A stretch of DNA of 64,000 bases from an uncultured Bacilli bacterium (GTDB lineage: Bacteria > Bacillota_I > Bacilli_A > RF39 > UBA660), in contig CAKOPC010000002.1 in the NCBI GenBank assembly GCA_934098705.1, positions 250,681 through 314,680 on the forward strand. Direction: 5' to 3'. The position numbers and the translations under genes are program-made. Below the pieces are notes generated by a model. The model was not told the DNA's origin. It saw only the letters and a list, made by a program, of their open reading frames with translations, and made no database searches. How positions within the stretch are numbered: the stretch's first letter is position 1; every line of letters starts with the position of its first letter. Below are positions 381-64,000 of this stretch, in pieces.

Positions 381-381
381 A

Positions 382-408
382 AAGATATAAAAAAATTATA
401 TCTTTTTT
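382..408 (+). terminator. intrinsic terminator
   Basis: Stem AAGATATAA / TTATATCTT with an AAAAA loop, followed by a T-run. Confidence 0.6.
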
Positions 409-477
409 AAATACTATAGAAAAAAATAGTATTTTAAGGTATAATTTAGGTATACAAATGTTTGATGGAGGAATATT

Positions 478-1564: not shown

Positions 1565-1565
1565 T

Positions 1566-3307: not shown

Positions 3308-3383
3308 ATATCTTAAAAAGCATTAAAATAAATATTTAAATATGATATAATAATAAATAGTTAAGATTCTATAGGAGGTATTT

Positions 3384-6131: not shown

Positions 6132-6133
6132 AA

Positions 6134-6157
6134 AGTTACAATTTAGTAACTTTTTTT
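6134..6157 (+). terminator. intrinsic terminator
   Basis: Stem AGTTAC / GTAACT followed by a T-run. Confidence 0.6.
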
Positions 6158-6234
6158 AATTTTTATAAAAATTATTAGTAATATTTATAAAAGTGTGTTA
6201 AAATAAGTACATAAAAAGGAAGTGTTATACAAAA

Positions 6235-7719: not shown

Positions 7720-7741
7720 AATATAATATTATAACCAAAAA

Positions 7742-7774
7742 ATGCATAAAATATACAAATTTATGCATTTTTTC
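7742..7774 (+). terminator. intrinsic terminator
   Basis: Stem ATGCATAAA / TTTATGCAT followed by TTTTTT. Confidence 0.7.
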
Positions 7775-7822
7775 TTTATTTTTTGTTTAAAAAGTGTGAT
7801 AATATTTAATAGGAGGTAAAAT

Positions 7823-9325: not shown

Positions 9326-11605
9326 ATGTTTAAAAAATATGATGAAGAAGCAAAAAAAGTATTAATTAATATGAGAAGTGAAATGGTAAATTTAAGACAC
9401 CCTTATATTGGAAGTGAACATTTACTTTTATCAATATTAAAATGTGCCAGTAAAGATTTAACATCAAAATTAGAAAAATATGGTTTAACATATAAATCCT
9501 TTAAAACAGAACTTATAAATATCGTAGGTTTAGGACATGAAAGTAATGATTTTTATCTTTATACACCACTTTTAAGAAATATTTTGGATAATGCAAGTAA
9601 CTTAAAAGAAAAGGATGACGTAACAGTATATGATCTTTTAACATCTCTTCTTGAAGAAGGGGATGGCATTGCTATAAGAATAATGTTAGGAATGAATATA
9701 AATGTTACTAAAATGTATGAAGATATGCAAAATAAAATAATAAAGAAGAATAAAAAAAGTAAAATGTTAATAGATAGTTTTGGAATAAATTTAAATGAAA
9801 AAGTAAAAAATGGTGATATAGTAGTAGGAAGAGATAAAGAAATAAAAAAAGTGATAGAAATATTATCAAGAAGATGTAAAAATAATCCTCTTTTAGTAGG
9901 AGATGCTGGGGTTGGTAAAACTGCTATAGTAGAAGAAATAGCAAGACTTATAGAAAATGAAAAAATACCAAGTTTAAATGGAAAAAAAATAATATCTGTA
10001 TCCATGTCAAATTTAGTTGCAGGAACTAAATATCGTGGTGAATTTGAAGAACGATTAAGTAAAATAATAAAAGAACTTGAAAAAAATGATGATGTAATTA
10101 TTTTTATAGATGAAATACATACTCTTGTAGGGGCTGGTGGTGCCGAAGGAGCAATAGATGCTTCCAATATATTAAAACCATCCCTTGCAAGAGGTAAAAT
10201 AAAGGTGATAGGAGCAACAACAACAGAAGAATATAAAAAATTTATTCAAAAAGATAAAGCCCTAGATAGAAGATTTCAAAAAGTTGTAATTGAAGAACCA
10301 AGTATAGAAGTAGTAAAAGATATTATAATGAAACTATCCCCAGTATATGAAAGTTATCACAAAGTAAAAATAGATGATAATGCTATAAATGCGATAGTAG
10401 ACCTATCCGCTAAATACATATATGATAGAAAAATGCCTGATAAAGCAATAGATGTTTTGGATGAAGTATGTTCTAAAGCTAAAACAACTAAAGAAAGATT
10501 AGAACAAGAAATTGAAGAAACTAAAGATAAAATAAAAAGTTTAAAAAATGATAAAAATAAAAGTATTATAGATAATAACTTTTCTTTAGCATTTACATAT
10601 AAACAAGAAGAAAATAAACAACTAGATAAATTAAATAAACTAGAACTTAAATATAGTAATAAAGAAAGGGTAAAAAAAGTTACTATAAAAGATGTAAAAG
10701 ATGTTATATATGAAATAAGTAAAATACCACTTGATATAGAAAATAATGAACTAAAAGTTTTTAAGCAAAAATTAAATAGCACAGTAATAGGTCAAGAAAA
10801 AGCAGTAGATAAATTATATGAAGCCTCAAAAAGAATAAAGTACAGCATAAATAAAGATAAAAGGCCAATATCCTTTCTATTTGTTGGTACAACAGGTGTT
10901 GGTAAAACATATCTAGCTAAAGAATATTCATCATTAATGTATGGCAAAAACTTAATAAGAATTGATATGAGTGAGTATAAAGAACCACATAGTATAAGTA
11001 AGTTAATAGGTTCTCCCGCAGGATATGTTGGTTACGATGATAAAAAATCAGTATTTGAAGAAATAAAAGATAAACCATACTCAGTTCTTTTACTTGATGA
11101 AGTTGAAAAATCATGCAAAGAAGTACTAAATCTATTTTTACAAATACTAGATGAAGGCTATATAAAAGATAGTAGTAAAAATACTATAAGATTTGATAAT
11201 ACTATAATTATAATGACATCAAACCTTATATCTAAAACACAGCAAATAGGATTTAATAAAACAAATGAGGATAGAGATTTTAAACAGTTACAAAACTTTT
11301 TTGGTATAGAATTTTTAAATAGAATAAATAATATTATATACTTTAACGATTTAAAAGAAGAAGATATAGAAAAAATAATAATAAATAAACTTGATTCTTT
11401 AAAAAAGAGTTATAAAATGCAAGATATAAAACTTACTATAAATAAAAAAATTATAAAAGAATTAATATCATTAACTGAATATGAAAAATTTGGAGCAAGA
11501 AGGGTAGATAAAATAATAAGTGATTATATTGAAAGTAAAGTAATAGACAATATAATAGAGGGTGAAACTCTAATAAAAATAGATAACATAGTGAAGGTAA
11601 ATTAA
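9326..11605 (+). CDS. clpC: ClpC-like AAA+ chaperone (Clp_N domain plus two AAA+ modules)
   Basis: Clp_N repeats, Walker A GDAGVGKT and GTTGVGKT, Walker B IIFIDEIH and LLLDEVEK. Confidence 0.8.
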   Translation: MFKKYDEEAKKVLINMRSEMVNLRHPYIGSEHLLLSILKCASKDLTSKLEKYGLTYKSFKTELINIVGLGHESNDFYLYTPLLRNILDNASNLKEKDDVTVYDLLTSLLEEGDGIAIRIMLGMNINVTKMYEDMQNKIIKKNKKSKMLIDSFGINLNEKVKNGDIVVGRDKEIKKVIEILSRRCKNNPLLVGDAGVGKTAIVEEIARLIENEKIPSLNGKKIISVSMSNLVAGTKYRGEFEERLSKIIKELEKNDDVIIFIDEIHTLVGAGGAEGAIDASNILKPSLARGKIKVIGATTTEEYKKFIQKDKALDRRFQKVVIEEPSIEVVKDIIMKLSPVYESYHKVKIDDNAINAIVDLSAKYIYDRKMPDKAIDVLDEVCSKAKTTKERLEQEIEETKDKIKSLKNDKNKSIIDNNFSLAFTYKQEENKQLDKLNKLELKYSNKERVKKVTIKDVKDVIYEISKIPLDIENNELKVFKQKLNSTVIGQEKAVDKLYEASKRIKYSINKDKRPISFLFVGTTGVGKTYLAKEYSSLMYGKNLIRIDMSEYKEPHSISKLIGSPAGYVGYDDKKSVFEEIKDKPYSVLLLDEVEKSCKEVLNLFLQILDEGYIKDSSKNTIRFDNTIIIMTSNLISKTQQIGFNKTNEDRDFKQLQNFFGIEFLNRINNIIYFNDLKEEDIEKIIINKLDSLKKSYKMQDIKLTINKKIIKELISLTEYEKFGARRVDKIISDYIESKVIDNIIEGETLIKIDNIVKVN

Positions 11606-11686
11606 TTTGATTTGCCTTTTTTTTAAAAACTAATTGTTTAATTTTTAATTTTCTGTTATCATAAATTATAAAGAAGGAGGACACTT

Positions 11687-13090
11687 ATGAAAATATATAA
11701 TACCTTAAGTAAAAAAGTAGAAGAGTTTATCCCAAATAATGAAAAAGAGGTAACATTATATACCTGTGGTTTAACTGTGTATAACTATGCCCATATAGGT
11801 AATTTACGAACTTATATTTTCGAAGATGTTTTAGAAAAAAGTTTAATATATTTAGGATACAATGTTAAAAGAGCAATGAATATAACAGATGTAGGTCATT
11901 TAACAAGTGATGCTGATACTGGTGATGATAAAATGACAAAAGAAGCCAAAAAAGAAGGTAAAACCCCAAAAGAAATTGCTAAATTTTATACAGAAGCATT
12001 TTTAAAAGACTTTAAAGATTTAAATATAAAAGTTCCAATTATTCTAGAAAAAGCAACAGATCATATAAATGACTATATAAAAGTAATAGAAAAACTATTA
12101 GAAAAAGGCTATGCCTATAAAGCTGGTGGCAATATTTATTTTGATATATCAAAAGTTAAAGATTACTATAAATTAAGTGGTAAACAGGAAGAAGATTTAA
12201 TGGTGGGAGTTCGTGATAGTGTCGAAGAAGATAGTAACAAAAGAAATCCATATGATTTTGTTTTATGGTTCACTAAAAGTAAATTTGAAGATCAGGAACA
12301 AAAGTGGGATTCTCCTTTTGGAGTTGGTTATCCAGGATGGCATATTGAGTGTTCTACGATTGCCTCATTATATCTTGGGGAGTATTTAGATATACACTGC
12401 GGAGGTGTTGATAATATATTCCCACATCATACAAACGAAATAGCACAAGCAGAAAGTTATTTTGGACATAAATGGTGTAATTATTTTATGCACGGCGAAC
12501 ATTTAAATGACAAAAATGGTAAGATGAGTAAATCAAAAGGAGAGTTCTTAACTTTGAAGTTATTAAAGCAAAAAGGTTATGACCCATTATGTTATAGATA
12601 TTTTTGCCTAGGTTCTCACTATAGAAATCAGCTTATATTTAGCTATGAATCATTAGATCAAGCTAAGGTAGCGTACTTAAAATTAAGAAATAAAACATCA
12701 AACCTTAAAAAAGATGGAAATCTAAATGAAGAGGCATTAACAAAGTATAAAGATAAATTTAAAGAAGCTATAAATAATGATTTGTCAACATCTGCAATGT
12801 TAACATGTGTTTATGACTGTCTAAAAGATAAAGATTTAAATGATACAACAAAAATAGAAATTATTAAATCTTATGATACTGTTCTATCACTAGATTTATT
12901 AAAAAAAGTAGAAAATGTAAGTATAAAAAATATAGATAAAGCTAAAATTGAAGAAAAGATAAAAGAAAGACTTAAAGCAAAACAAGAAAAAAATTATGCT
13001 TTAGCGGATAAAATAAGGGATGAATTATTAAATAAAGGTGTAAAGTTAATTGATACAAAAGATGAAACTACCTATGAATTTATAAATTAA
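11687..13090 (+). CDS. cysS: cysteine--tRNA ligase
   Basis: HIGN (class I HIGH) and KMSKS motifs, plus the typical CGGVDNIFPHH segment. Confidence 0.95.
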   Translation: MKIYNTLSKKVEEFIPNNEKEVTLYTCGLTVYNYAHIGNLRTYIFEDVLEKSLIYLGYNVKRAMNITDVGHLTSDADTGDDKMTKEAKKEGKTPKEIAKFYTEAFLKDFKDLNIKVPIILEKATDHINDYIKVIEKLLEKGYAYKAGGNIYFDISKVKDYYKLSGKQEEDLMVGVRDSVEEDSNKRNPYDFVLWFTKSKFEDQEQKWDSPFGVGYPGWHIECSTIASLYLGEYLDIHCGGVDNIFPHHTNEIAQAESYFGHKWCNYFMHGEHLNDKNGKMSKSKGEFLTLKLLKQKGYDPLCYRYFCLGSHYRNQLIFSYESLDQAKVAYLKLRNKTSNLKKDGNLNEEALTKYKDKFKEAINNDLSTSAMLTCVYDCLKDKDLNDTTKIEIIKSYDTVLSLDLLKKVENVSIKNIDKAKIEEKIKERLKAKQEKNYALADKIRDELLNKGVKLIDTKDETTYEFIN

Positions 13091-13147
13091 CTTTAAAAAA
13101 ATGTAACAATAATACAAAAATAAGAATCAAAAAAAGAGGTAATAATT

Positions 13148-13852
13148 ATGTTAGTATATGGAAAAAATAGTTGTTCTTTTTACTTAGAGAACAAAAAAAA
13201 TATAAAAAAATTATATTTAGATAGAAATTTTACTGATAAACACATTTTAGAAATTATAAATAAATTAAATATAAAACCATATTTTTTAACAAAAACAGAA
13301 CTTGATTTAATGATAGGTGGCAATCACCAAGGAATTATTATGGATATTGGAGAATATAGATACTACGACATAGATGATATAATAAAAGATGATGGCTTTA
13401 TAGTAATGCTAGATCATCTTGAAGATACTCATAACTTTGGTGCTATTATAAGAACATGTGAAGCTGCAGGAGTTGATGGCATTATAATACCAAAAGATAG
13501 AAGTGTAAGTGTTAATTCAACTGTCATGAAAACAAGTTCTGGAGCAGCAACTAATATGAAAATATGTATGGTTACCAATTTAGTGCAAACAATAAAATAT
13601 TTAAAAGATAAAGGTTACTATATAACAGCAACTGATATGGATGGAGAAAATTATACAGACATATCATATACTGGTAGTACATGTATTGTAATAGGAAATG
13701 AAGGAAAAGGAGTAGCCCATCTTGTTAAAAAGTCAAGTGATTACATAGCAAGTATTCCACTTCTTGGCAAAATAAATAGTCTAAATGCATCTGTTGCAGC
13801 AGGTATATTAATATATGAAGTTGTAAGACAAAGGAATATTAATGGATTATAA
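13148..13852 (+). CDS. rlmB: TrmH/SpoU-family 23S rRNA 2'-O-methyltransferase (RlmB/YacO-like)
   Basis: SpoU motifs (LDHLEDTHNFGAIIRT, VIGNEGKG, SLNASVAAGILIYE). Shares the cysS-yacO-sigH synteny known from Bacillus. Confidence 0.8.
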   Translation: MLVYGKNSCSFYLENKKNIKKLYLDRNFTDKHILEIINKLNIKPYFLTKTELDLMIGGNHQGIIMDIGEYRYYDIDDIIKDDGFIVMLDHLEDTHNFGAIIRTCEAAGVDGIIIPKDRSVSVNSTVMKTSSGAATNMKICMVTNLVQTIKYLKDKGYYITATDMDGENYTDISYTGSTCIVIGNEGKGVAHLVKKSSDYIASIPLLGKINSLNASVAAGILIYEVVRQRNINGL

Positions 13853-14438
13853 AACTATAAATGATTATGAGCTTATATATTTAGTAAATGAAAATAATGA
13901 AGATGCATTTAACATAATATTTAAAAAATATGAGAATTTAATAAATAAATATGCTAATTATTATTACAATAATTATAAACAAAAAGGAATAAATAAAGAT
14001 GAATTAAATCAAGAAGGCAAAATAGGTTTATATATGGCTTTAAAAACATTTGATACTTTAAGAAATATTAAGTTTTATACCCTAGCATTATCATTTATAA
14101 AAAAATATATGTTAAATTATATAAGGATGTCCTTATCCCATAAAAATCAAATAATATCAGGGTCCGTATCCTTAGATAATATTGATATAAAAGAAAAAAA
14201 TAATGTTGCCTTAGAAATTGAAGAAAAAGAATTAACAAAATTGTTAATAACTTTTAAAAATGATTTACCATTTCATGAAGCTAACATATTTGAACTAAAA
14301 TATAATGGTTTTAAATATGATGATATAGCCAAAATAATGGATATGACAAAAAAACAAATAGATAACAAATTACTAAAAATAAGAAAAGCCTTTAAAAATT
14401 ATTTACATGTTAAAGGTTATGAACTTGAAGCACACTAA
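13842..14438 (+). CDS. sigH: sigma-70 family sigma factor, SigH-like
   Basis: 198 aa with region 2-like and region 4-like segments. Position after cysS-rlmB matches Bacillus sigH. Confidence 0.55.
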   Translation: MDYKTINDYELIYLVNENNEDAFNIIFKKYENLINKYANYYYNNYKQKGINKDELNQEGKIGLYMALKTFDTLRNIKFYTLALSFIKKYMLNYIRMSLSHKNQIISGSVSLDNIDIKEKNNVALEIEEKELTKLLITFKNDLPFHEANIFELKYNGFKYDDIAKIMDMTKKQIDNKLLKIRKAFKNYLHVKGYELEAH

Positions 14439-49047: not shown

Positions 49048-49707
49048 TTAATCATTTTCTAAGTTTCTTTTTCTTATAAGCTCGTTATTAACATTATTGT
49101 TAATAACTCTTTTTGCCATTTTACCACAACTATATCTAAATTTATAGCCATTATCATTAATATTAACTTTAGTAATATTATCATAGGAAATATAAATGTC
49201 TTTGCCTGGAAATTTATAACAATTATCAAAAGTATCAAAAGGAGATTTTGATATATCAAGCAAATATAAATAGTCTAAATCTTTATAAACAATGTAAAAC
49301 AGTTTATGATTTTTTTCAACAATATCATTTATATCTAATCTATAATTAGGATTATAATTATGATAAAATGAGGTAGAGTTAAAGAATTTTTTAAAAATAT
49401 TACCAATATAATGCATCTTTTTACTAATATCTATGCCATCATCAAAATCAATTTCTTTAACAAAACAAAAAATATCATTTTTATCAATTAAATAAGGATC
49501 CATTTTTATAAATCTTTTTTTATTATCATCAATTTTATTATAAGGGAACATATAATCATCATAGGAAACTAATCTTTTAAAAAATGGTAATACAACATAT
49601 TTATTATGTTTATCATTTTTAGAAATAACAAGTCCAAATCTTAGTTCATTATCAATTTTACAAATTACAATATCACCTGGTATAAAACATTTATTTTCTG
49701 TATTCAT
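49048..49707 (-). CDS. hypothetical protein (orphan, opposite strand)
   Basis: 219-aa ORF with SD GGAGG on the minus strand. I recognise no family. Confidence 0.45.
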   Translation of the reverse strand: MNTENKCFIPGDIVICKIDNELRFGLVISKNDKHNKYVVLPFFKRLVSYDDYMFPYNKIDDNKKRFIKMDPYLIDKNDIFCFVKEIDFDDGIDISKKMHYIGNIFKKFFNSTSFYHNYNPNYRLDINDIVEKNHKLFYIVYKDLDYLYLLDISKSPFDTFDNCYKFPGKDIYISYDNITKVNINDNGYKFRYSCGKMAKRVINNNVNNELIRKRNLEND

Positions 49708-50869: not shown

Positions 50870-51358
50870 ATGACAAGAGTAAAAACAAGTGTAACAACAC
50901 GTGCAAAAAGAAAAAAATATCTTGATAAAGCCGAAGGATATTTTGGAAGTAAACATAGATTATTTAAAACTGCCAAAGAACAAGTTATGCGTTCTGAAAG
51001 ATATGCATATCGTGATCGTAAACAAAAGAAAAGAGAATTTAGAAAATTATGGATTATTAGAATTAATGCTGAATGTAGAAATAATGGAATCAGTTATTCT
51101 AAATTCATTAGTGGTTTAAATAAAGCTGGAGTAGAAGTAAATAGAAAAATGTTAGCAGAACTTGCTATTTACGATAAAGAAGCATTTAAAAATTTAGTTG
51201 AAATTTCTAAAAATGGTAAAGTACAAGAAGTAAAACCAAAAAAAGAAGTAAAAGCTAAAGAAGAAAAGAAAGAAACAGTTAAAAAAGAAGCAGTTAAAAA
51301 AGAAACAAAACCAAGAACTACTAAGACTGCTACTAAACCAAAAAAAGAAGAAAAATAA
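50870..51358 (+). CDS. rplT: 50S ribosomal protein L20 with Lys-rich C-terminal extension
   Basis: L20 core ([16 protein letters not shown]...) followed by ~45 aa of K/E/T-rich tail. Confidence 0.9.
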
Positions 51359-51447: not shown

Positions 51448-52482
51448 ATGACAGTAGTATCAATGAATTATTTATTAGAAGCAGGAGTACATTTTGGACA
51501 TCAAAAAAGAAGATGGAATCCAAAGATGAAAGAATATATATATACATCACGTGATGATATATATATAATTGACTTACAAAAAACAGCAAATCTTATTGAA
51601 GAAGCATATGTTGCATTAAAACAAATAGCAGAAAAAGAAGGAACTGTATTATTTGTAGGTACAAAAAAACAAGCACAAGAAGCAATGCAAGAAAGTGCTC
51701 AAAGAACAGGTATGTATTATGTTACTGAAAGATGGTTAGGGGGAACTTTAACTAACTTTAGAACAATAAGAAGTAGAATTAAAAGACTTGAAGAAATAGA
51801 AAATATGGAAAAAGAAGGTAAATTTGAACTTTTACCTAAAAAAGAAGTAATTAAACTAAAAAAGGAATATGAAAAATTAAACCGTAATTTATGTGGAATA
51901 AGAGATATGAAACATCTTCCAAATGCATTAATTATTGTTGACCCAAGACAAGAAGAAACAGCAATAAAAGAAGCAAGAAAATTACATATTCCAGTATTTG
52001 GTATTGTAGATACAAATTGTGATCCAGATATGGTTGATTACGTAATTCCTGCAAATGATGATGCAGTAAGAAGTGTAAAACTTGTAATTGGTGTATTAGC
52101 AAATGCAGTTGCAGAAGCTTATGGTAAAGAAATGATTAATTACGTATCAAATGAAGATAAAGATAAAAATTCTAAAGAAAACATTATGGAAAAAGCAGTT
52201 AAAGAAGTAAAAGACATCAAAGAAGAAATGAAAACTTTAGATATAGAAAAAGATGTTAAAGAAAAAATCAAAGAAGTAAAAGAAAAAGCTCATAAAAGAG
52301 CAGAAAATATTAAAGTAAAAGCAGAAAATATTAAAAAAGAAGTAAAAGAAAAAGTACAAGAAATTAAAGAAGATGTACTAGAAGAAAAAACTTTAACAGA
52401 ATTAAAAGCTATGGCAAAAGCAAAAGATATTAAAGGCTATAGCACAATGAAAAAGCAAGAATTAATCGATGCTTTAAAATAA
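51448..52482 (+). CDS. rpsB: 30S ribosomal protein S2 with ~110-aa C-terminal extension
   Basis: S2 core ([11 protein letters not shown]). A K/E-rich repeat tail ends in [29 protein letters not shown]. Confidence 0.95.
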
Positions 52483-53386: not shown

Positions 53387-53418
53387 AAGATTCAAAGATT
53401 AAACTTTGAATCTTTTTT
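53387..53418 (+). terminator. intrinsic terminator
   Basis: Stem AAGATTCAAAG / CTTTGAATCTT followed by a T-run. Confidence 0.8.
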
Positions 53419-53483: not shown

Positions 53484-54434
53484 ATGAATTATATGAGATA
53501 TAAACGTTTAAAAAAAATTAATATTAAGTTTTTAAAAAGAAAAAAATTTATAATTTTAATTTGTATCTTATTACTTGTTATAACATCTTCTCTTACATTT
53601 GGTAAATATTTTCATGATGGTTTGCAAAATTTTTATTTTCAAACTAAAAAGTTTTATTTTAATAGTGATAAATTAAAAGATAAAACTGCAACTTATAGTT
53701 TAGATAACTGGTCTGGAGCGGGAGAATATACAATAAATATTAATATGAATAGTATAAAAAATAATTTATTAAAGGCAGAAACAGATATAAGTTATAATAT
53801 TACTTATCAGTGTCCGTCAACAGTTACTTGCCAAATAACAAAAACAAGTGGTGTAATATATGGAAGTGTTAATAATGATTCATTTAATATAGTAGTAACA
53901 CCAAATACAACATTTCATGATGGTGATACAATACTTATATATGTATCTGCAACGTCAACATCACCTTATGAAAAAACAATATCCGCAAGATTCATTTTAA
54001 AGGTAGGTAAAATAGGATTATCATATGAAATAACAGATGAAGAAAAAAGTCCCTACTTAGAGTTTAGAATAACTAATACTATAGATTATTATTTAGTTGA
54101 AGAAGCTTTTGATAATTATAATATTGGTGATAGAATTGATATTGGGCCATATCTTAACCTTCCATCTTCTAAAAAAGATAAATGTTATTCAGCCTATATA
54201 ACATTAACATTTGATCCAAATGTTGTAAGACTTGATTTAACAAATCCTTCATATTTAATAAAAACAAATGAAACAACTAGCCTTATAGAGGGTAATAGTT
54301 ATATTAATGGATACACTTTTAAAATGGAGGCCATATCATCACAAATGGTTAGATTTTATAAAGTAAATCCATTAAATAACTACACATATCCCTTAGTCAA
54401 TGAAACATCAGTAATTAACTTTGAAAGTAGGTAA
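53484..54434 (+). CDS. secreted/anchored beta-rich protein with LTFGKYF post-TM motif
   Basis: 316 aa. A basic N-terminus and TM are followed by T-F-G-K-Y-F, resembling the motif shared by five neighbouring genes. Confidence 0.5.
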   Translation: MNYMRYKRLKKINIKFLKRKKFIILICILLLVITSSLTFGKYFHDGLQNFYFQTKKFYFNSDKLKDKTATYSLDNWSGAGEYTININMNSIKNNLLKAETDISYNITYQCPSTVTCQITKTSGVIYGSVNNDSFNIVVTPNTTFHDGDTILIYVSATSTSPYEKTISARFILKVGKIGLSYEITDEEKSPYLEFRITNTIDYYLVEEAFDNYNIGDRIDIGPYLNLPSSKKDKCYSAYITLTFDPNVVRLDLTNPSYLIKTNETTSLIEGNSYINGYTFKMEAISSQMVRFYKVNPLNNYTYPLVNETSVINFESR

Positions 54435-55422: not shown

Positions 55423-56943
55423 ATGAATACATTTATAAGATTTTTATATGAATTTTTAAGGCAATTTTTCTCAGGTTTTAAAAGCTTTTTTAGTGGTCTT
55501 TTAACTGGAATAAAAGATACCTTTAGTATAGGATCATATATAAAAATACTTAACGAGTATAAAAATGATTTTAATGGTGCTGAATGGGTTTTTGTGTCTT
55601 TAACAATTATTTTACTTTTAATATTAATATCTGCACTTGGATTTATAATTTACTTTATAATAAAGAAATATTTAAGATTTAGAAAAACTTTAGTAGAGCA
55701 GGAAGAAATGTTAGAAGAAATAGCTAAACTTAATAAAGAAGTTGCTATAATGACGAAAGAAAAACAAGATATATTATCTATGAAAGTATCACAACTTGGT
55801 CTATCTCCTGATGAAGATGATGAAACAGAAGAAAATGCAAAACCAGAAGAAGAAGAAAACTTAGGAATAAGATTTGCTAAATTAAACGAAATAGACGAAG
55901 AGTTTAAAGATTATAAAATTCAAAATTATGGGAATACATTTACTCTTGAAGAATTAGTTAATTTGTTTAGAAATTTTGCTGCATCTAAACTTAAATTATA
56001 TTATTCTGTTGAAATGATAAGACTTTTTATATCTGCCATTGCTTCAACTAAACTTATTATTTTACAAGGTATATCTGGTACTGGTAAAACATCTCTTGCT
56101 TATGCATGGGGAAAGTTTTTAAAACACGATTCCTGTGTTGCTTCAGTACAACCATCATGGAGAGACCGTACAGAGCTATTTGGTTATTTTAACGAATTTA
56201 CCAAAAAGTTTAATGAAACAGAAGTATTAAAGGAAATATATATGGCAGGTTATACTGATGATATTTATACAGTAATACTGGATGAAATGAATATATCACG
56301 TGTTGAGTACTACTTTGCAGAAATGTTATCAATACTTGAAATGCCAAATAAAGATGAGTGGATAGTAGAACTTGTACCAAGTAAATGGAAAAATGACCCT
56401 AAAAAGTTAATTGGAGGAAAATTAAAAATTGCTCCAAATGTTTGGTATATAGGAACAATAAATAATGATGATTCTACATTTATGGTAACAGATAAAGTAT
56501 ACGACCGTGCTATGCCAATAGATATAAACGATAAAGGAAAAGCATTTGAACCAGTTCAAACAGATGCTCAAGATATAAATTATTCCTATCTTGATTCGTT
56601 ATTTCAAACTGCAATAAAAGAAAATGAAATAACAGAAGAATCATTAAAGAAAATTGAAGAAATGGATGACTACGTTATTAAACATTTCCGTATTGCTTTT
56701 GGTAACCGTATTGTAGCTCATATGAAAAAATTTGTACCAGTATATAAAGCAGCTGGAGGTACTGAACTTAATGGAATAGACTACTTTATGGCACGTAAAG
56801 TACTTAGAAAATTCGAGCAATTAAACATTTCTTATATAAGAGATGAAATAGATGGCTATATAAAATTTTTGGATGACAAATTTGGAGAAAATGAATTTAA
56901 AGAATGTAAAGAATATTTATTAAGATTAAAGAAATTAGCTTAA
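55423..56943 (+). CDS. membrane-anchored, coiled-coil McrB-family (AAA_5) GTPase
   Basis: TM at ~aa 55-80, then a coiled coil and acidic linker. Walker A GISGTGKTS, Walker B VILDEMN, and McrB-type GTINNDDS (NxxD). Confidence 0.75.
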   Translation: MNTFIRFLYEFLRQFFSGFKSFFSGLLTGIKDTFSIGSYIKILNEYKNDFNGAEWVFVSLTIILLLILISALGFIIYFIIKKYLRFRKTLVEQEEMLEEIAKLNKEVAIMTKEKQDILSMKVSQLGLSPDEDDETEENAKPEEEENLGIRFAKLNEIDEEFKDYKIQNYGNTFTLEELVNLFRNFAASKLKLYYSVEMIRLFISAIASTKLIILQGISGTGKTSLAYAWGKFLKHDSCVASVQPSWRDRTELFGYFNEFTKKFNETEVLKEIYMAGYTDDIYTVILDEMNISRVEYYFAEMLSILEMPNKDEWIVELVPSKWKNDPKKLIGGKLKIAPNVWYIGTINNDDSTFMVTDKVYDRAMPIDINDKGKAFEPVQTDAQDINYSYLDSLFQTAIKENEITEESLKKIEEMDDYVIKHFRIAFGNRIVAHMKKFVPVYKAAGGTELNGIDYFMARKVLRKFEQLNISYIRDEIDGYIKFLDDKFGENEFKECKEYLLRLKKLA

Positions 56944-56964
56944 TAAAAGTATTAGGAGGATAAA

Positions 56965-58074
56965 ATGGATGATTTAAAAGTATTAAATTTTTATAACGCT
57001 AATAATAAAAACCTAGTTAAATCATTTAATAATAATATTGATTCTTCATTAAATGTAAAATTAGATTATAATAAAGTTGAAACAGATACAAATTGGATAG
57101 ATAAAATGACAGAAACGATACCATACCTTGACAACATATTAAGAAATCCTAATAGATTTATTGTAAATGAAGAAGACGTTGTAAAAATAGAGCTTGCAAG
57201 AAGAATTACTGTTGAAAGCATAAAGCATTTATCACGTAATACTAATTTTATTCAAGATTATAATAAGAAAACAGGAGATGTAAGGCCTTCCAAGATTTTA
57301 AACATAAATAAAGAAGAAAGTTTTAATACTTATGAAAACAGATTTATATATAGTTTAATAAAAAATATGCAGTTTTATATTGCTAGAAAAAAATCTCTTG
57401 GAATAAAAGATCCATTTTGTAAAGATAATAAACTATTAACCTATAATGGTGTAACTAAAGTTGGCAAAGAACATGTTAATATATCATTAAATCTAAAATC
57501 TGAAAAACAAGAAACCTCAAAAGTTAAGTCATTAGAAGAACAAATAGCAGAACTTGAAATAAAAATAGCAGATTTAACAAGAGCAGATGTCTTTAAAAGC
57601 ATTGATAAGTTACATATTGCCCTTGTAACATCTCCCATAAAAAAGACAAATATGATATTAAAAAATGTTAATTTTCAATATGCACTAAGCTTGTGGAATT
57701 ATCTTCAAGAAAATATAGAAGATGATAGTGCAAACATAAAAGAAAAAAAAGATTATAACGATAATGGCGATTTAAAAAAATATATAGATGAAACTATGAT
57801 GTTAAACTATTTAGTGATGACATCTTTAAATAAAGAACAAAAAAAAGAAGAAATAAATAAAGAAGAAATAGCAGAAAAATTAATTGCAAATATGGTAGAA
57901 AAAGTACTTGATGTAAATGAAACTTTAAATGAAGAAATGTTAAAAAATATTGTAAGTAAACAATATGCTGTAATAAAATATAAAAATGTAGAAAATGATA
58001 TAGAATTACAAAGAAGATTTAAAAAATATCTTAATGAATATATAAAAAAAGTAAGTGAGGCAAAGTTAATATGA
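56965..58074 (+). CDS. partner protein, possibly McrC-N/DUF2357-like, with no nuclease motif seen
   Basis: 369 aa. The NTYENRFIYSLI motif recalls McrC-type partners. The central and C-terminal parts are coiled-coil-like. I found no PD-(D/E)xK motif. Confidence 0.4.
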   Translation: MDDLKVLNFYNANNKNLVKSFNNNIDSSLNVKLDYNKVETDTNWIDKMTETIPYLDNILRNPNRFIVNEEDVVKIELARRITVESIKHLSRNTNFIQDYNKKTGDVRPSKILNINKEESFNTYENRFIYSLIKNMQFYIARKKSLGIKDPFCKDNKLLTYNGVTKVGKEHVNISLNLKSEKQETSKVKSLEEQIAELEIKIADLTRADVFKSIDKLHIALVTSPIKKTNMILKNVNFQYALSLWNYLQENIEDDSANIKEKKDYNDNGDLKKYIDETMMLNYLVMTSLNKEQKKEEINKEEIAEKLIANMVEKVLDVNETLNEEMLKNIVSKQYAVIKYKNVENDIELQRRFKKYLNEYIKKVSEAKLI

Positions 58075-58709
58075 TAGAGAAGTTAAAAAAAACATATAAT
58101 GATATAATGGAAAAAGATATAGTAAAATTTACACTAGGTTTTATAAAGGTTGTTATAGCTATATTTATTATATTAATAATGTCCGTTATAATAATACAAA
58201 AAGTATCAAATAACAATTTATCTTTAGGTGGTTATAGATTATTTACTATAGTTACAGGTAGTATGGAACCAAAATATAAAGTTGGAGATATGGTACTTGC
58301 AAAAGAAGTAAAAGCTAAAGATATAGAAGTATTAGATGATGTTGTATATAATGGTAAAGAAGATGATTTTAATGGTAAAATTGTAGCTCATCAAGTTATA
58401 AAAAAAGAAGTTAAAAATGGAAAATACAGTTTTATAACAAAAGGAATTGCTAATCAAAGCGAAGATCCTAAAATAAGTGAAGAACAAATAATAGGTAAAA
58501 TAATATACAAAACAGTTATACTAAGTTTTATAACAAAAATTGTTAATAACTTATATGGATTCTACTTTCTTTTATTTGTACCGATAGTTGTATTAACATT
58601 TATAGAAATTATTAAAGCAATAGAGGAAAAAAAGGAAGAAAAAGAGGAGAAAAGAAAATTAAAAGAAAAAGAAGAATCTAAAAAACAAGATGATGAGGAA
58701 GAATTATAA
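58071..58709 (+). CDS. SipW-like (ER/archaeal-type) signal peptidase I
   Basis: TGSMEP (Ser), AHQV (His), TKGIANQSEDP, and both N- and C-terminal TMs. 4-nt overlap with the upstream gene. Confidence 0.8.
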   Translation: MIEKLKKTYNDIMEKDIVKFTLGFIKVVIAIFIILIMSVIIIQKVSNNNLSLGGYRLFTIVTGSMEPKYKVGDMVLAKEVKAKDIEVLDDVVYNGKEDDFNGKIVAHQVIKKEVKNGKYSFITKGIANQSEDPKISEEQIIGKIIYKTVILSFITKIVNNLYGFYFLLFVPIVVLTFIEIIKAIEEKKEEKEEKRKLKEKEESKKQDDEEEL

Positions 58710-59314
58710 TGAAAGATATTTTTGATGTAATAAAAAAAGTATTTAAAAAAGTTAAACTATCAACTATACTTCTTTTATTTTTTCTTTTATCTACTAATGT
58801 TTTTGCATGGTTTATTTATACAACTAAAGTGGATTCAAATATTACAGCTCATGTAAAGGCTTGGGATGTTTCATTTACTGTTGGAAGTACTGAACTTTCC
58901 CAAGAGATAAATTTTGATATAGCAGAAGTTTATCCTGGTATGACATCATATCTTCAAAAAATAACAGCAACAAATAATAGTGAAACAAAAGCTAAATTTA
59001 CATATGAAATAATAAGTGCTTCTATTTTAGGAGAAACATATAAAACAGGGCCAAATCTTACAAGCGAAGAACTATCACAAAAATTAGCAAATGATTACCC
59101 ATTTAAAGTTATATTTAATACAGATAATCATTTAATGGCATCACATGGTGGTAAGGGAGAATTTTCCTTGTCAGTTACATGGCCTTATGAAAGCGGAGAT
59201 GACGCTAAAGATACATATTGGGGTAATAAAGCTTATTTATTTAAGAAAAGTAATCCAAGTGTTCCAAGCATAAGTTTAGTTGTTAAAATAAATGCTATAC
59301 AAGTTGAAGAATAA
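58709..59314 (+). CDS. TasA/camelysin-like secreted protein
   Basis: A TM is followed by NVFAWF. The C-terminal part contains VTWPYESGDD. 1-nt overlap with the peptidase gene. Confidence 0.55.
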   Translation: MKDIFDVIKKVFKKVKLSTILLLFFLLSTNVFAWFIYTTKVDSNITAHVKAWDVSFTVGSTELSQEINFDIAEVYPGMTSYLQKITATNNSETKAKFTYEIISASILGETYKTGPNLTSEELSQKLANDYPFKVIFNTDNHLMASHGGKGEFSLSVTWPYESGDDAKDTYWGNKAYLFKKSNPSVPSISLVVKINAIQVEE

Positions 59315-59563: not shown

Positions 59564-59587
59564 TTAAAAAAAGAGAATAATCTCTTA
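59564..59587 (-). terminator. intrinsic terminator of the minus-strand gene
   Basis: On the minus strand: AAGAGA TTAT TCTCTT followed by TTTTTTT. Confidence 0.65.
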
Positions 59588-60178
59588 TTCGCCTTTATTT
59601 TGAATAAATGATAAAGATACATTTAGTAATGCTTTGCTATTTTCATCTGTAGCAGCTAAAGTATCGGCATCATTATCCATATTACTAGAGTCCCCATCAT
59701 TCCACATTACATATACTCTAATTGTTAAAACATCAGTTGTATTATGATTTACAAGACCTGTTATATTTTCATTATAACTTTCAAAGTTAACAACTTCACC
59801 ACCATTTATAGAGTATCCTGTTGTAACAAGGTCAGTAACACTACTTTCAAGAGAAGCATTAGCAGTTATTGTATAATTAAATGAAACATCAGTATCTTTT
59901 GCATCAATTATTATATCAAAATAACCAGTTGATGTAGGAGCAATAACATCACTTTTTATATATTCATTACCACTAAAAACTGGTGTTATAACTTCTTGTG
60001 CTAAAGAACCACTTGTTATATCTTCATCATTAACAAGTATTTTCCATCTAGCAACTGTCATATTAGCTTCACCACTTACATTGTTAATATATTTAGCATA
60101 AGTATCTTGTATAAAAGTTAAACACATTAAAAGAGAAATAAAAGCAATTAATAATCTAAATTTTTTGATTTTAATCAT
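59585..60178 (-). CDS. TasA/camelysin-like secreted protein (inverted paralogue)
   Basis: A TM is followed by DTYAKYI. Contains VYVMWNDGDSS. SD GGAGGG. Confidence 0.55.
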   Translation of the reverse strand: MIKIKKFRLLIAFISLLMCLTFIQDTYAKYINNVSGEANMTVARWKILVNDEDITSGSLAQEVITPVFSGNEYIKSDVIAPTSTGYFDIIIDAKDTDVSFNYTITANASLESSVTDLVTTGYSINGGEVVNFESYNENITGLVNHNTTDVLTIRVYVMWNDGDSSNMDNDADTLAATDENSKALLNVSLSFIQNKGE

Positions 60179-60370: not shown

Positions 60371-61069
60371 ATGGCAAAAGAAGTACTGGTAACAGCTAAA
60401 AAGTTAAAAAACAGGAAAAAGTTTTATAAACAAGCCAAATGGATTTTACTATTTATACTTATCTTTTTAATTATTGTCTACATTATCCTTGAAGTAACAT
60501 ATAATGGCGGTCATTTTACAATAAGTTTAGACAAAAATACTACTTTAAAACAAAATTTAGTACTTTATGAAGATATTAAATATAAGGAACCCCAAGTAAA
60601 GTTAAGCGCAGGAAAAATTGATTTTTTGGATAATATATCTATTGACTGGATACCAAAAGACATTGATAGTGAAAAAGACGGCTCTCATAATGGAGATAAT
60701 TATATAGCGTATACTTATTATATTGAAAATATAGGGGAAGATGTAGTAAATTACTGGACTGAACTTTATATAGATGATGTAATAAAAAATGTTGATGAAG
60801 CATTAAGAGTTATGGTTTTTGAAAATGGTGAAAAAACTGTTTATGCCAAAATAAACAGTATAACAAATCTTCCTGAAAATGGCACAACACCTTTTTATAG
60901 TAAAGACAAAGTTTTTGTAAGAGAACGTGATTTAATAAAACCAAATGAAATAGATAAATATACTATTGTTATATGGCTTGAAGGGGACGACCCAGACTGT
61001 CTTGATGATATTTTAGGTGGAGAAATCAAGATGCATGTAAAAATAAGAGATGAACATTTTGTTGATTAA
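60371..61069 (+). CDS. membrane-anchored protein of the same family
   Basis: A TM is followed by VTYNGGHF. The C-terminal IVIWLEGDDPDC..GGEIKMHVKI parallels the next gene. Confidence 0.5.
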   Translation: MAKEVLVTAKKLKNRKKFYKQAKWILLFILIFLIIVYIILEVTYNGGHFTISLDKNTTLKQNLVLYEDIKYKEPQVKLSAGKIDFLDNISIDWIPKDIDSEKDGSHNGDNYIAYTYYIENIGEDVVNYWTELYIDDVIKNVDEALRVMVFENGEKTVYAKINSITNLPENGTTPFYSKDKVFVRERDLIKPNEIDKYTIVIWLEGDDPDCLDDILGGEIKMHVKIRDEHFVD

Positions 61070-61078
61070 GAGGTATTT

Positions 61079-62089
61079 ATGAAGAAAACAAAAGAAGAGA
61101 AAAAGGAAGTAAACAGATTATTTTTATTGTTATTATTAACATTTGGAACACTTATACTTTTTTCAGTATCGTCATATGCTTGGTTTTCAGCAAATAGGAT
61201 GGTTACTATTGATTCACTTGATATAAAAGTAGCAACAGTTGGGGGAATTGATATATCAGCAGATGCCTTAAACTGGAAAGTTGCTCTTACAACAAGTGAA
61301 CTTATTGATGTTAAAGATACAACCTATCAAACAAGTATAAATCAAATTCCCCTTTATTTAGAACCAGTATCAACTGGGGGATTAATTGATGATAATGGTC
61401 TTTTAAAACTATATCATGGTATTGCAACAAATGATGATATAAATGGAAACTTTTTATTAACAACAACAAGAAGTATTGAGGAATTTGGATATGGTGTTTT
61501 AAGTAGTGGTAAGTTTATTGCTTTTGATATATTTTTAAGGACAACAGCTCCTAAAAACCTATATTTAACAACAGATTCAAAAGTAACATATAATGGTGAA
61601 AAAACTGTAGGAATTGAAAATGCTTTTAGAATCGCTTTTTTAAATGAAGGTAATGTAACCAAAGATACTAATTATTTAATAGCTCAAGCTTTAAAAGGAG
61701 CAACAAAGCCTTATATTTGGGAACCAAATTATGATACTCATACAGAAGGTGGTGTCTTTAATGCACTTAATACATATGGAATAACAACAACCATGGAAAA
61801 TAGTGAAAAAATAGATTATGATGGTGTAATAGATGAAATAACAAGGGAAGATAATATCTCATTAAGCGGTGCAAGTGAGGCTTTAAATAGTACAAAATTT
61901 AAAAGAGTAGATGTTGATTATGCTACTAAAACAAATAGAGATAGTTATGAAAGAATATTTGATATTCCAAGTGGAATAAGTAAAATAAGAATATACATAT
62001 GGATAGAAGGACAAGATGTTGACTGTGAAAATGAAGCATCAGTTGGAGATGCTAAGTTAACATTAAAACTATCAACTAATCCATCATAG
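61079..62089 (+). CDS. TasA/camelysin-like secreted protein
   Basis: A TM is followed by SSYAWFSANR. C-terminal IYIWIEGQDVDC..GDAKLTLKLS. Confidence 0.6.
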   Translation: MKKTKEEKKEVNRLFLLLLLTFGTLILFSVSSYAWFSANRMVTIDSLDIKVATVGGIDISADALNWKVALTTSELIDVKDTTYQTSINQIPLYLEPVSTGGLIDDNGLLKLYHGIATNDDINGNFLLTTTRSIEEFGYGVLSSGKFIAFDIFLRTTAPKNLYLTTDSKVTYNGEKTVGIENAFRIAFLNEGNVTKDTNYLIAQALKGATKPYIWEPNYDTHTEGGVFNALNTYGITTTMENSEKIDYDGVIDEITREDNISLSGASEALNSTKFKRVDVDYATKTNRDSYERIFDIPSGISKIRIYIWIEGQDVDCENEASVGDAKLTLKLSTNPS

Positions 62090-62129: not shown

Positions 62130-64000
62130 ATGAAAAAGTTAATAAAGAAATTAAAATTTAAAAAACTTAGTTCAAATACAAAAGTTAAAATTATTTTTAT
62201 GCTTCCTGTATTTTCTTTATTAATAATTTTAATTACTACTTTCTTTAAAACATATGGGGATTATGTAACAAATCCAAATAGCAAGCAAAGTGGTGTAACC
62301 GAAGATACTGTGTATATAAATGACGATATGAGAGATTGGTATTACTACATGGGATTAAATTACACAGAAAATGATGGTACTTTGCCAACTGCTGTTGATA
62401 AAAAAATATATAGTAACAAAAATTTAGTAAGACTTAATATAACATATGATAGTTTAGATTTAATACATAATGCAACAAGCTATGTTGGAATAAGTGAAAC
62501 ACAGTCAAAGTACGTATATTACAAAGTATTAAATGTTAATGATAATGGCACAGAATCAAAACTTGATGATTATGTAATGTTAGAATTAATAGATAATCCT
62601 TTTGCTAATATTCCAGATGATTTAGCATTTAATGGCTGGATAACAAATTATGAAAATGTAAAATTAAGTTTTGACAATACATATTATGTAAGATATGCCA
62701 AAATACCAGTAACTTATAATAGCAATGACACTCCAAGTGATATAACAATTACCTTTAATGCAAGTTATGTACCAGCAAATAAAGTAATACTAGGACAAAC
62801 TTCATGGAATAATGCTCTAAATAATCTAGATAATGCTGTTATGAAAAATATTAAAGTTTTTGAACTTGAATATAAATATGATATAACAGATGATTATTAT
62901 ACTAGTGTATCAATAGCAAATGGTGAAAGTTGTGCCAATATGTATAACGAACAAGGAGTAAGGCAAAATAATAACTGTACTTGTAGAACTTGGTGGGGAA
63001 ACTGTACTTATTATGAAAAAGTAGAAAGTCAAATATATGATAGTACTAAAAATTATTACAAATTAGAATATAACTATATGCAAAGTGTTGATATAGAACA
63101 AACTTTAGAACCAATAAGTGTTGAATATATCTATTATAATTTGTTTAATGAAAATTCTAATATGGCTGGTTTCTACAGATTAAAAGAAATTGCATATAGA
63201 GAAAATATGGCAGGTTATTATGATGAAAGTGGAAATATTTTAACTGGAAACTGTAATTATAATACTTGTAATGTTTATGAACTAATAAACTATTATGATG
63301 AAAATGGTGTTGAAAATAAAGTAAGTAAAGATGATGATTACTATTACCTTGTAACTAGAGATACTAACATTTTAATTATGAATCAAAATAGGAGTGATAG
63401 TTGGGGAAATAATAGTAAACCGTTTACCTTAAAAGGAATAGATAATAACATTGATTATAACCCAACATGGAATATATCAAGAACATATGTTAAATGTTAT
63501 AATGCAACAAGAATTGAATATATAACAATATCATCAGGTCAAAACTATACATTAAATATTGAACCATCATCAAGTCCTAATTCAAGGGGTTATTTTTATG
63601 GAAATTATAAAAATGTAAAACTAGGTAGAAATATTAAAAGACAAGGAAACTATGCAACATTTAGATCAATACTTGGGGGAGATAACACAAGATATAATAT
63701 TGGAAGTAGTCAAAATCTTACAAAATATAGATTAATTATTGAAAGTGGTTATTATCAAACAATGTCTATAACAAATACTAATAATCAAAATTCTAACCAC
63801 CAAAATATATATATAAAAGCAGAAGCAATTTATGGTAATGATTATGACAGAGTAAGCGATAATAATAACAATTTAATATTATACTACTGTGCTTGTGGTT
63901 CATGGAACGACAACTATTATTCAAATAGTAATGCAGGTATTCTTTTTACTTTAACTGTTAAAAGTGGAATATATGGACAAGGTAAAAAGGATTATACATC
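62130..64000 (+). CDS. large N-terminally anchored surface protein (3' end outside the window)
   Basis: ATG 62130 follows SD AAAGGGGA. The frame stays open to the window edge (over 620 codons, so it is absent from the ORF track). A TM is followed by KTYGDYV. N/Y/Cys-rich. Confidence 0.6.
   Translation, partial: MKKLIKKLKFKKLSSNTKVKIIFMLPVFSLLIILITTFFKTYGDYVTNPNSKQSGVTEDTVYINDDMRDWYYYMGLNYTENDGTLPTAVDKKIYSNKNLVRLNITYDSLDLIHNATSYVGISETQSKYVYYKVLNVNDNGTESKLDDYVMLELIDNPFANIPDDLAFNGWITNYENVKLSFDNTYYVRYAKIPVTYNSNDTPSDITITFNASYVPANKVILGQTSWNNALNNLDNAVMKNIKVFELEYKYDITDDYYTSVSIANGESCANMYNEQGVRQNNNCTCRTWWGNCTYYEKVESQIYDSTKNYYKLEYNYMQSVDIEQTLEPISVEYIYYNLFNENSNMAGFYRLKEIAYRENMAGYYDESGNILTGNCNYNTCNVYELINYYDENGVENKVSKDDDYYYLVTRDTNILIMNQNRSDSWGNNSKPFTLKGIDNNIDYNPTWNISRTYVKCYNATRIEYITISSGQNYTLNIEPSSSPNSRGYFYGNYKNVKLGRNIKRQGNYATFRSILGGDNTRYNIGSSQNLTKYRLIIESGYYQTMSITNTNNQNSNHQNIYIKAEAIYGNDYDRVSDNNNNLILYYCACGSWNDNYYSNSNAGILFTLTVKSGIYGQGKKDYT

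Follow-up and report, generated by a model that had tools for sequence, protein, structure and literature searches.

What would a relative of the McrB restriction motor be doing at the membrane, beside a signal peptidase gene and several genes for exported proteins, and with a partner in which no nuclease can be seen? The question is raised by a locus in a stretch of 64,000 nucleotides (the window, from here on) of an uncultured Bacilli bacterium (GTDB lineage Bacillota_I, Bacilli_A, RF39, UBA660; contig CAKOPC010000002.1 of assembly GCA_934098705.1), where the genes for an ATPase of 506 amino acids (aa) and its 369-aa partner lie third and fourth in a block of ten. A first-pass annotation, made from the letters alone, had offered two answers, namely a new defence variant or a GTPase motor co-opted for envelope or fibre assembly. 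The genomic context supports the second and, because of the near-universal synteny and the very strong conservation of the block, this envelope reading is favoured over defence: the locus probably encodes a GTP-driven membrane module that controls the processing and/or assembly of SipW-dependent surface proteins, in the service of envelope or fibre assembly and not of immunity.

The ATPase gene carries the following features:

55423..56943, + strand: gene 3, 506 aa, predicted membrane-anchored McrB-family AAA+ nucleoside triphosphatase (NTPase), NxD branch
55582..55662, + strand: single predicted transmembrane (TM) helix, residues 54-80 (Kyte-Doolittle 3.15), with KKYLRFRK directly after it
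55663..55863, + strand: stalk (residues 81-125, helical, heptad-like) and acidic linker (residues 126-147), as read from the sequence
56068..56091, + strand: Walker A, GISGTGKT, residues 216-223
56272..56292, + strand: Walker B, VILDEMN, residues 284-290, then R293 and E295
56461..56472, + strand: sensor-1 signature N347-N-D349-D350, the NxD variant followed by an acidic residue

The protein had been placed in the McrB family from its Walker A and Walker B motifs and from GTINNDDS (residues 344-351, with DKVYDRAMPIDI at residues 357-368), all of which are found as first read, and the placement is upheld by searches of the solved structures, among which only E. coli McrB is matched at E<=0.01 (E=0.006 with the single sequence, E=1.8e-4 with a profile of 45 family members). 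The same searches speak to the alternative of a MoxR- or dynein-type AAA_5 domain, as no PDB entry of MoxR, RavA or dynein reaches E=1. The motif residues are strongly kept, G216 being invariant in an alignment of 135 sequences (and G216, G219, G221 and K222 in the 45-sequence family alignment), D287 and E295 likewise invariant, and E288, N290 and R293 each retained in 134 of 135 sequences. What has to be revised is the NxxD GTPase signature originally reported. When the query is aligned with 134 representatives drawn from a search of 1.8 billion cluster representatives (8018 matches to the ATPase with E<=1e-3, 754 of them with E<=1e-30), none of the 134 lacks N347 or D349, and position 350 varies (D in 97, E in 33, Q in 3 and G in 1). 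The motif is therefore NxD(+D/E) and not NxxD, and its NxxD look arises because D occupies both positions 349 and 350 in the window copy. An NxD branch of McrB GTPases, in which a glutamate or a second aspartate usually comes next, has been defined by Bell et al. (eLife 2024, PMC11090510). Its sequence assigns the 506-aa protein to this branch of the McrB-family AAA+ NTPases, and not to the relatives of MoxR or dynein.

The N-terminal region is of a different nature. One strong hydrophobic segment (residues 54-80) is predicted to tether the ATPase to the membrane, as the first-pass annotation had it, and the acidic linker and a heptad-like helical stretch are seen as well; conservation is 68% in the stalk and 31% in the linker. 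By the positive-inside rule, the positively charged cluster after the TM helix would put residues 1-53 outside the cell and leave the AAA+ domain on the cytoplasmic side. With the family profile, a weak match is obtained to subunit b of the ATP synthase, which consists of a TM helix and a long helix (E=0.055), and no DNA-binding family was detected in residues 1-147 in family searches. One TM helix and a short helical stalk appear to stand in the place of the DNA reader.

Three features describe the partner:

56965..58074, + strand: gene 4, 369 aa, predicted McrC-like partner with a DUF2357 N-terminal domain and no nuclease
57094..57387, + strand: most conserved block, residues 44-141, the DUF2357 core
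57574..57714, + strand: second conserved block, residues 204-250 (H217, PIKKTN, LKNxNFQYA, LW), with no invariant acidic residue

Its assignment as an McrC/DUF2357-type protein, first made on the likeness of a short stretch, is borne out by Pfam, whose DUF2357 model matches residues 55-141 above the cut-off (E=3e-9; 36.9 bits against 23.3 bits); NTYENRFIYSLI corresponds to residues 121-132, and residues 44-135 are 81% identical across 78 orthologues. The absence of a PD-(D/E)xK motif, also noted at the start, was confirmed in the partner, for which no nuclease family match was obtained either (Pfam, PADLOC, NCBIfam). In 38 diverse orthologues, none of the invariant positions that follow E124 is an Asp or Glu; they are Y160, L204, H217, P224, K226, K227, T228, N229, K233, N234, N236, F237, Q238, Y239, A240, L243 and W244. 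The AlphaFold model of the partner (39 homologues) is of moderate quality only (pLDDT, the per-residue confidence, 65.9; pTM, the overall one, 0.46) and finds nothing significant in the PDB, neither McrC nor a PD-(D/E)xK enzyme. With no conserved acidic residues, family match or fold match, a cryptic nuclease was rejected; in longer relatives of the partner (274-828 aa), Pfam gives only DUF2357 or coiled-coil-type matches and no nuclease domain. The partner, which has no hydrophobic segment, appears to keep the N-terminal (DUF2357) domain of McrC without the nuclease. In it, the coiled coils reported earlier turned out to be modest, the stretch quoted for them being a 16-residue helix in the model, with helices 190-215 and 269-364 of low to moderate confidence (low for the C-terminal ones). 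Within the conserved block, residues 63-118 of the monomer model are of low confidence, with pLDDT below 50 in 67-78, 83-99 and 107-118, and such a conserved but poorly modelled segment would fit folding only within the ATPase ring, like the McrC finger.

Both genes belong to a larger block, whose other members and upstream boundary are these:

53387..53414, + strand: terminator-like hairpin after tsf (11-bp stem, then a T-run), upstream boundary of the cluster
53484..54434, + strand: gene 1, 316 aa
54441..55412, + strand: gene 2, 323 aa
58071..58709, + strand: gene 5, 212 aa, SipW/archaeal-type signal peptidase I
58709..59314, + strand: gene 6, 201 aa, exported
59585..60178, - strand: gene 7, 197 aa, exported paralogue of gene 6
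60371..61069, + strand: gene 8, 232 aa, signal-anchored
61079..62089, + strand: gene 9, 336 aa, exported, beta-rich
62130..64000, + strand: gene 10, partial, an open frame that leaves the window (>623 aa here)

The ten genes, tightly packed after the hairpin and extending from 53484 to beyond 64000, form a conserved chromosomal unit. The ATG of the partner gene is preceded, 4 nucleotides before, by an AGGAGG ribosome-binding site, its stop codon shares the sequence ATGA with the start of the peptidase gene (58071-58074, an overlap already seen in the first reading and found again), and the peptidase gene is in turn joined to gene 6 by a TAATG overlap (58707-58711). The ATPase-partner pair is translationally coupled to the signal peptidase gene. 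Since TGA serves as a stop in the window, the standard bacterial code applies. A promoter scan was uninformative in such AT-rich DNA (92 sites against 76 expected).

The enzyme encoded by gene 5 is matched by TIGR02228 (E=1.2e-20; 74 bits against a cut-off of 51.85) and by the SipW model (E=2.5e-20), with two TM segments, an SMxP motif that holds the Ser, a conserved His and a charged tail of 27 aa. Could this tail be a cytoplasmic coiled coil that serves as a docking site? The idea finds no support in the orthologues, whose tails are charged, unconserved and short, with a median of 13 aa. Genes 1, 6, 7, 8 and 9 each encode one N-terminal hydrophobic segment, and several of their products share short motifs. 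In the products of genes 6 and 9, Ala-Trp-Phe is invariant straight after the hydrophobic segment, and in gene 9 the signal peptide appears to be of the SipW-dependent type ('SSYAWFSAN'); gene 7 has the motif '...DTYAKY', and the A-W-F and Y-A-K-Y motifs are alike by eye. Gene 7 is a paralogue of gene 6 (in hhalign, 155 columns align with a probability of 94%), and genes 6 and 9 share their N-terminal 35 columns (95% in a profile-profile comparison). At the other end, the C-terminal motif of gene 8 (W-L-E-G-D-D-P-D-C), whose product has a basic N-terminus and a strong TM segment, and that of gene 9 (W-I-E-G-Q-D-V-D-C-E) have W-x-E-G-x-D-x-D-C in common (hhalign 83%; tblastn E=2e-4). The gene-1 protein, exported or anchored and bearing the motif '...TFGKY', has orthologues in synteny at 73 loci (38-81% identity), and neither Pfam nor NCBIfam has a family for it; an orthologue bears the label 'archaellin' in one public source, and, this label and the signal peptidase excepted, public annotation has 'hypothetical protein' for the neighbours.

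Gene 10 encodes a giant N/Y-rich surface protein with an N-terminal hydrophobic segment, of more than 1000 aa in five loci (L001, L004, L010, L049 and L075), in synteny at 37 loci and without a family in Pfam. The cluster probably includes this gene as its tenth member, and its product is possibly an adhesin or a distal component.

In their layout, these genes resemble the tapA-sipW-tasA operon of Bacillus and bsaA-sipW of Clostridium perfringens, where a dedicated SipW-type peptidase also lies beside its substrates, the signal peptide ends in aromatic-Ala before x-Phe/Tyr and there are several paralogous secreted proteins. Unlike the window, those operons have no NTPase, and the secreted proteins of the window are like TasA in neither sequence nor fold. 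The identification of the secreted neighbours as TasA or camelysin was tried and rejected, as PDB profile searches, hhalign and a Foldseek search of the gene-9 model were all negative: in hhalign, the five secreted families reach a probability of <1% against TasA (using a TasA sequence validated against PDB 8AUR), so that the likeness is confined to the type of signal peptide. The AlphaFold model of gene 9 (pLDDT 84.7, pTM 0.82) is globular and beta-sandwich-like, and Foldseek finds no significant fold match for it in the PDB or in a viral structure library.

How well the block is preserved was examined with one genome per species. An ATPase orthologue is present in 250 species representatives, and the best 80 loci of the 250 were kept, with ATPase identities of 69-91%. 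The carriers are all uncultured low-GC Bacilli from gut, rumen or faeces, whose records are labelled Mollicutes, Tenericutes, Erysipelotrichaceae or "Clostridium sp. CAG:567/609/628/914". In these 80 loci, the order gene 1, gene 2, ATPase, partner, peptidase, gene 6, gene 7, gene 8, gene 9 is kept wherever the contig is long enough. The flank of ribosomal-protein genes and tsf is common only to the window and its closest relative (L002), and the conserved unit is therefore the block and not its neighbourhood. The AAA+ core of the ATPase (residues 201-375) has a mean identity of 90% across the orthologues (80 species), compared with 54% down to 42% for the secreted genes 1 and 6-9, 40% for the peptidase and 30% for gene 2; in the nearest relative, the ATPase is 90% identical, versus 90-92% for infC, rpmI and rplT and 73% for tsf. 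An origin on a mobile element was considered and rejected, because the matches in plasmid and phage collections are partial or weak: no full-length ATPase relative was found in them, the plasmid matches cover only the AAA+ core at <40% identity, and the phage matches are two and weak.

In many of the orthologous loci (L008, L011, L013-L015, L017, L022, L030, L039, L041, L044, L045 and others) a second module lies upstream of gene 1 (about 2500-5500 in locus coordinates), in which a further SipW-like gene (25-36% identity) is accompanied by a gene resembling gene 7 and, often, by one resembling gene 9. No second copy of this kind exists in the window.

Is the association restricted to close relatives? 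Ten distinct distant loci with the full-length ATPase architecture, at 32-51% identity, were annotated with hidden Markov models of the block families and NCBIfam. A DUF2357 partner is found in nine of the ten, the tenth contig stopping just past the ATPase gene; a SipW-type peptidase adjoins the ATPase in seven (with two copies in two of them), and gene-8- or gene-9-like secreted genes occur in six, four of which (L085, L091, L093 and L095) have a gene-8 homologue. The association of ATPase, SipW and secreted genes appears to predate the lineage of the window.

These loci also show a variety of contents. Six tandem gene-9-type paralogues precede the SipW, ATPase and partner genes in L083 (1597-7217), where the partner has 828 aa. 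In L087 (3396-4373), the gene for an EAL protein (Pfam E=2.9e-53) lies between the ATPase and DUF2357 partner genes, and in L095 GGDEF and EAL genes are found upstream (485-3098) and the gene of a 949-aa EAL protein downstream (11446-14295); such cyclic di-GMP (c-di-GMP) genes, in or beside the clusters, fit a surface or biofilm structure better than immunity. L092 (5988-10500) has tandem ATPase genes (449 aa and 500 aa), the first with the gene of a DUF2357 partner (555 aa) after it and the second with a gene that the contig end truncates, and there is no recognisable SipW within the 11 kb available. In L090, the genes of two LRR_5 proteins, a surface protein of 2750 aa (1-8219) and a further one (12934-13806), flank those of the ATPase and the partner, and gene-8- or gene-9-type genes are absent. 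The cluster relative of L086 (721-3571) lies directly downstream of phage-like genes (DUF859, Phage_holin_1).

Gene 2 encodes a cytoplasmic protein with no hydrophobic segment and always lies directly upstream of the ATPase gene. The identity of its product is 75-76% in the closest two relatives and 25-42% in the majority of loci, and a homologue also precedes the 40%-identical ATPase of L086. No Pfam match was found in 52 orthologues and no PADLOC match. The only PDB profile match of its C-terminal unit ('KIxYxDY...GYxFAxxLD') is to a designed TIM-barrel beta-alpha unit (E=1.4e-4), and E194-x-K196 is conserved. That it might be a degenerate EAL domain, as suggested by the true EAL gene at the equivalent spot in L087, was rejected (hhalign probability 0.07%, besides the lack of a Pfam match). 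The protein could be a regulator or an unrecognised effector.

The membrane-anchored arrangement, which had seemed to fall outside the published picture, does in fact have a name. In a survey of McrBC systems in which the CoCoNuTs were defined, Bell et al. (eLife 2024, PMC11090510, section 7) also named a CoCoPALM clade, whose GTPase is fused to an FtsB-homologous domain with TM and coiled-coil helices; they noted the association with the peptidase independently, reported that McrC homologues of the NxD branch are often without a nuclease, and deferred CoCoPALM to "a separate, forthcoming publication". The locus of the window is very probably a CoCoPALM-type module, belonging to a clade that has been named but not characterised, and not a new category: the NxD motif, the TM and helical segment, the adjacent DUF2357 partner, the gene of the signal peptidase family and the occurrence in Bacillota are all shared, with the weak coiled coil of the window partner as a difference. 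The published description amounts to one paragraph, and the ten-gene block, its strong conservation and the non-TasA secreted families are not in that text; a literature search gave no later CoCoPALM paper and no other paper tying DUF2357 or McrB to SipW, and the supplementary text files of Bell et al. say nothing about CoCoPALM. The points added here that were not found described are the ten-gene extent, the core-gene-like conservation, the NxD assignment, the putative SipW-type signal peptides, the non-TasA secreted proteins without structural relatives in the PDB or the viral library, and the recurring c-di-GMP neighbours.

Two better-known systems frame the module. Like the CoCoNuTs (CnuB/CnuC), it has a GTPase of the NxD branch (residues 145-504 being about 40% identical) and a DUF2357 partner of a kind in which an active PD-(D/E)xK nuclease is often missing. 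However, the GTPases of the CoCoNuTs are proteins of 650-870 aa with long soluble coiled coils and without a membrane anchor; they always come with nucleases or helicases, and they are found on plasmids and in islands. In the window there is instead a membrane anchor with a neighbourhood of peptidase and secreted-protein genes, and no nuclease or helicase was found. The CoCoNuT pattern fits those relatives whose soluble N-termini are long (L081, 745 aa; a Deinococcus plasmid, 800 aa) and which have helicase-type genes and the gene of a long DUF2357 protein beside them; the CoCoNuT-like relatives L081 and L089 carry helicase-type genes and have neither peptidase nor secreted genes at the locus. 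With classical McrBC (E. coli; PDB 6HZ4 and 6UT6), the pair has in common the AAA+ fold, Walker A and B, the Asn/Asp sensor-1 signature and the two-gene arrangement with an McrC-type partner and its ring-inserting N-terminal domain; it differs in the missing N-terminal DNA-binding domain of the ATPase, in NxD versus NxxD and in the partner without PD-(D/E)xK, and the sequence similarity to the window ATPase is weak (E about 1e-4 with a profile).

How might such a module work? McrB forms a hexameric ring, and an N-terminal finger of McrC in the pore stimulates GTP hydrolysis via the signature Asp. By analogy, the locus would hold a descendant of the McrBC restriction motor that was recruited to the cell envelope, where it would make one functional unit with the SipW-type peptidase and the SipW-dependent surface proteins. 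The ATPase would form a hexameric ring under the membrane, held by six TM helices and stalks, with the conserved 53-residue N-terminus on the outer face, and the DUF2357 segment of the partner (residues 44-141) would enter the ring and stimulate GTP hydrolysis as McrC does for McrB. The nucleotide-driven movements may then be relayed via the stalk and the TM helix to the outer 53-residue segment, where they could gate or drive the cleavage by SipW of membrane-held pre-proteins, after the Ala of Y-A-W-F. The cleaved proteins would be released, or assembled stepwise into a surface filament or coat, for which the signal-anchored gene-8 protein and the giant gene-10 protein might provide base, tip or adhesin components.

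A bolder version of this proposal, which we hold only tentatively, is that the block encodes a new machine that assembles a filament or coat at the surface. In it, a GTP-driven membrane ring derived from McrBC and a SipW-type peptidase would polymerise a new family of beta-rich subunits (genes 6-9), for which the PDB offers no fold relative, and display a giant adhesin; the machine would belong to the core features of a gut lineage that is abundant and uncultured. Its logic would be that of the type IV pilus, with unrelated parts. With type IV pili and the archaellum, the likeness is one of logic only, i.e., a cytoplasmic hexameric NTPase, a dedicated peptidase and paralogous subunits that are hydrophobic at the N-terminus; the parts are different, as those systems use PilB/FlaI secretion ATPases and an aspartic prepilin peptidase where the window has a McrB AAA+ protein and a SipW serine peptidase, and their cleavage motif comes before the hydrophobic segment, whereas in the window proteins it comes after.

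Several observations weigh against the envelope reading as a whole. The SipW-type signal-peptide model TIGR04088 (cognate_SipW) is limited to the gene-9 family, as it matches 18 of 47 gene-9 orthologues (best E=5e-5; the window copy itself is not matched) and none of 35 gene-6 and 37 gene-1 orthologues. The gene-9 model, a confident one, matches neither TasA nor any pilin. Three of the ten divergent loci have no SipW within the DNA available. The GTPase activity of CoCoPALM, the formation of a ring and the contact with SipW are all points that we infer. The FtsB/DivIC homology of the ATPase N-terminus was not reproduced, residues 1-159 giving no match to DivIC or FtsB in Pfam at E<=1, and, given that the GTPase must be cytoplasmic, the helical stalk would lie inside the cell, in a topology that is the reverse of that of FtsB. 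The cytoplasmic gene-2 protein is unexplained and could be an effector that goes unrecognised, and, the partner model being moderately confident, a degenerate nuclease remnant may conceivably persist in it.

Could the locus be an anti-phage or abortive-infection system of the CoCoNuT lineage after all, in which the tethered GTPase and its partner would sense infection and the SipW-processed proteins, the membrane proteins or the gene-2 protein would act as effectors? The nearest characterised or classified relatives are indeed defence-type McrBC and CoCoNuT systems, relatives at about 40% identity accompany helicases on plasmids and in islands, and that of L086 adjoins phage-like genes; the uncharacterised cytoplasmic gene-2 protein, with its conserved E-x-K, would be at hand as an effector. 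The ATPase also matches the PADLOC candidate PDC-M26A (E=8e-32), but membership in PDC-M26 was rejected, since the match to the A model is confined to the ATPase core and the partner is matched by no PADLOC model, which leaves homology at the level of the family. Nonetheless, family searches with the ten cluster proteins revealed no nuclease (HEPN, PLD, Vsr-like), helicase or other effector domain, defence genes do not typically show a synteny fixed across 80 species or a motor core with 90% identity, and the plasmid and phage collections have no full-length relative, the context being chromosomal and beside translation genes. On this balance, defence is an unlikely explanation.

Another possibility, to which we give a rather low probability, is that of an envelope or division machine, where components of the membrane or of cell shape would be organised by the GTPase with its TM and coiled-coil segments, and the secreted proteins would make up a coat or an S-layer-like surface and not a pilus. 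The literature calls the N-terminal module FtsB-like (PMC11090510), the ATPase gene is core-like and very strongly conserved, the gene-9 fold is globular and beta-sandwich-like without resembling a pilin, and there is a giant surface protein within the block. However, besides the undetectable similarity to DivIC/FtsB, the block has no division genes, and the recurrent link is to a dedicated SipW-type peptidase and paralogous small secreted proteins, which is nearer to tapA-sipW-tasA than to division clusters. Finally, the ATPase-partner pair and the peptidase and secreted genes might be functionally unrelated neighbours; with start and stop codons that overlap, a gene order kept in 80 species and an association that recurs at 32-51% ATPase identity and was noted independently by Bell et al. 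(PMC11090510), such a coincidence would be very surprising. The module for surface-protein processing or assembly is hence the reading we retain as the probable one.

Some features of the surrounding DNA can be recorded as well. The window is low-GC (about 25%) chromosomal DNA with almost all genes on the + strand and a uniform GC skew, and 5' of the block come glyA, infC-rpmI-rplT, rpsB and tsf. Of the listed genes with 150 aa or more, all lie on the + strand except for two - strand open reading frames, which overlap genes of the + strand. Among its few - strand genes (gene 7 is another) is a 219-aa open reading frame at 49048-49707 with no assigned function, and in the 48-50 kb bin the GC skew falls to about 0. 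Ribosomal proteins S2 (344 aa, 51448-52482) and L20 (162 aa, 50870-51358) have long Lys/Glu-rich C-terminal extensions, and the end of the S2 tail resembles, by eye, a Rho-N/SAP-like helix-extended-helix motif.

What the locus suggests for the family is that a descendant of the McrBC restriction motor can look like a core housekeeping gene (its core is 90% identical, in at least 80 species) and be linked to export and surface display; this, if true, would clearly exemplify the exaptation of a defence NTPase for building the cell envelope, or the reverse course. The window provides a clean and compact example of CoCoPALM with its parts list, an apparently new secreted fold family and a candidate SipW cleavage motif, and the recurring c-di-GMP genes in related clusters offer a regulatory link that can be tested. 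As for the organisms, the carriers are abundant uncultured Bacilli of gut and rumen with reduced genomes, to which a surface structure of this kind probably matters for attachment to the host or to particles.

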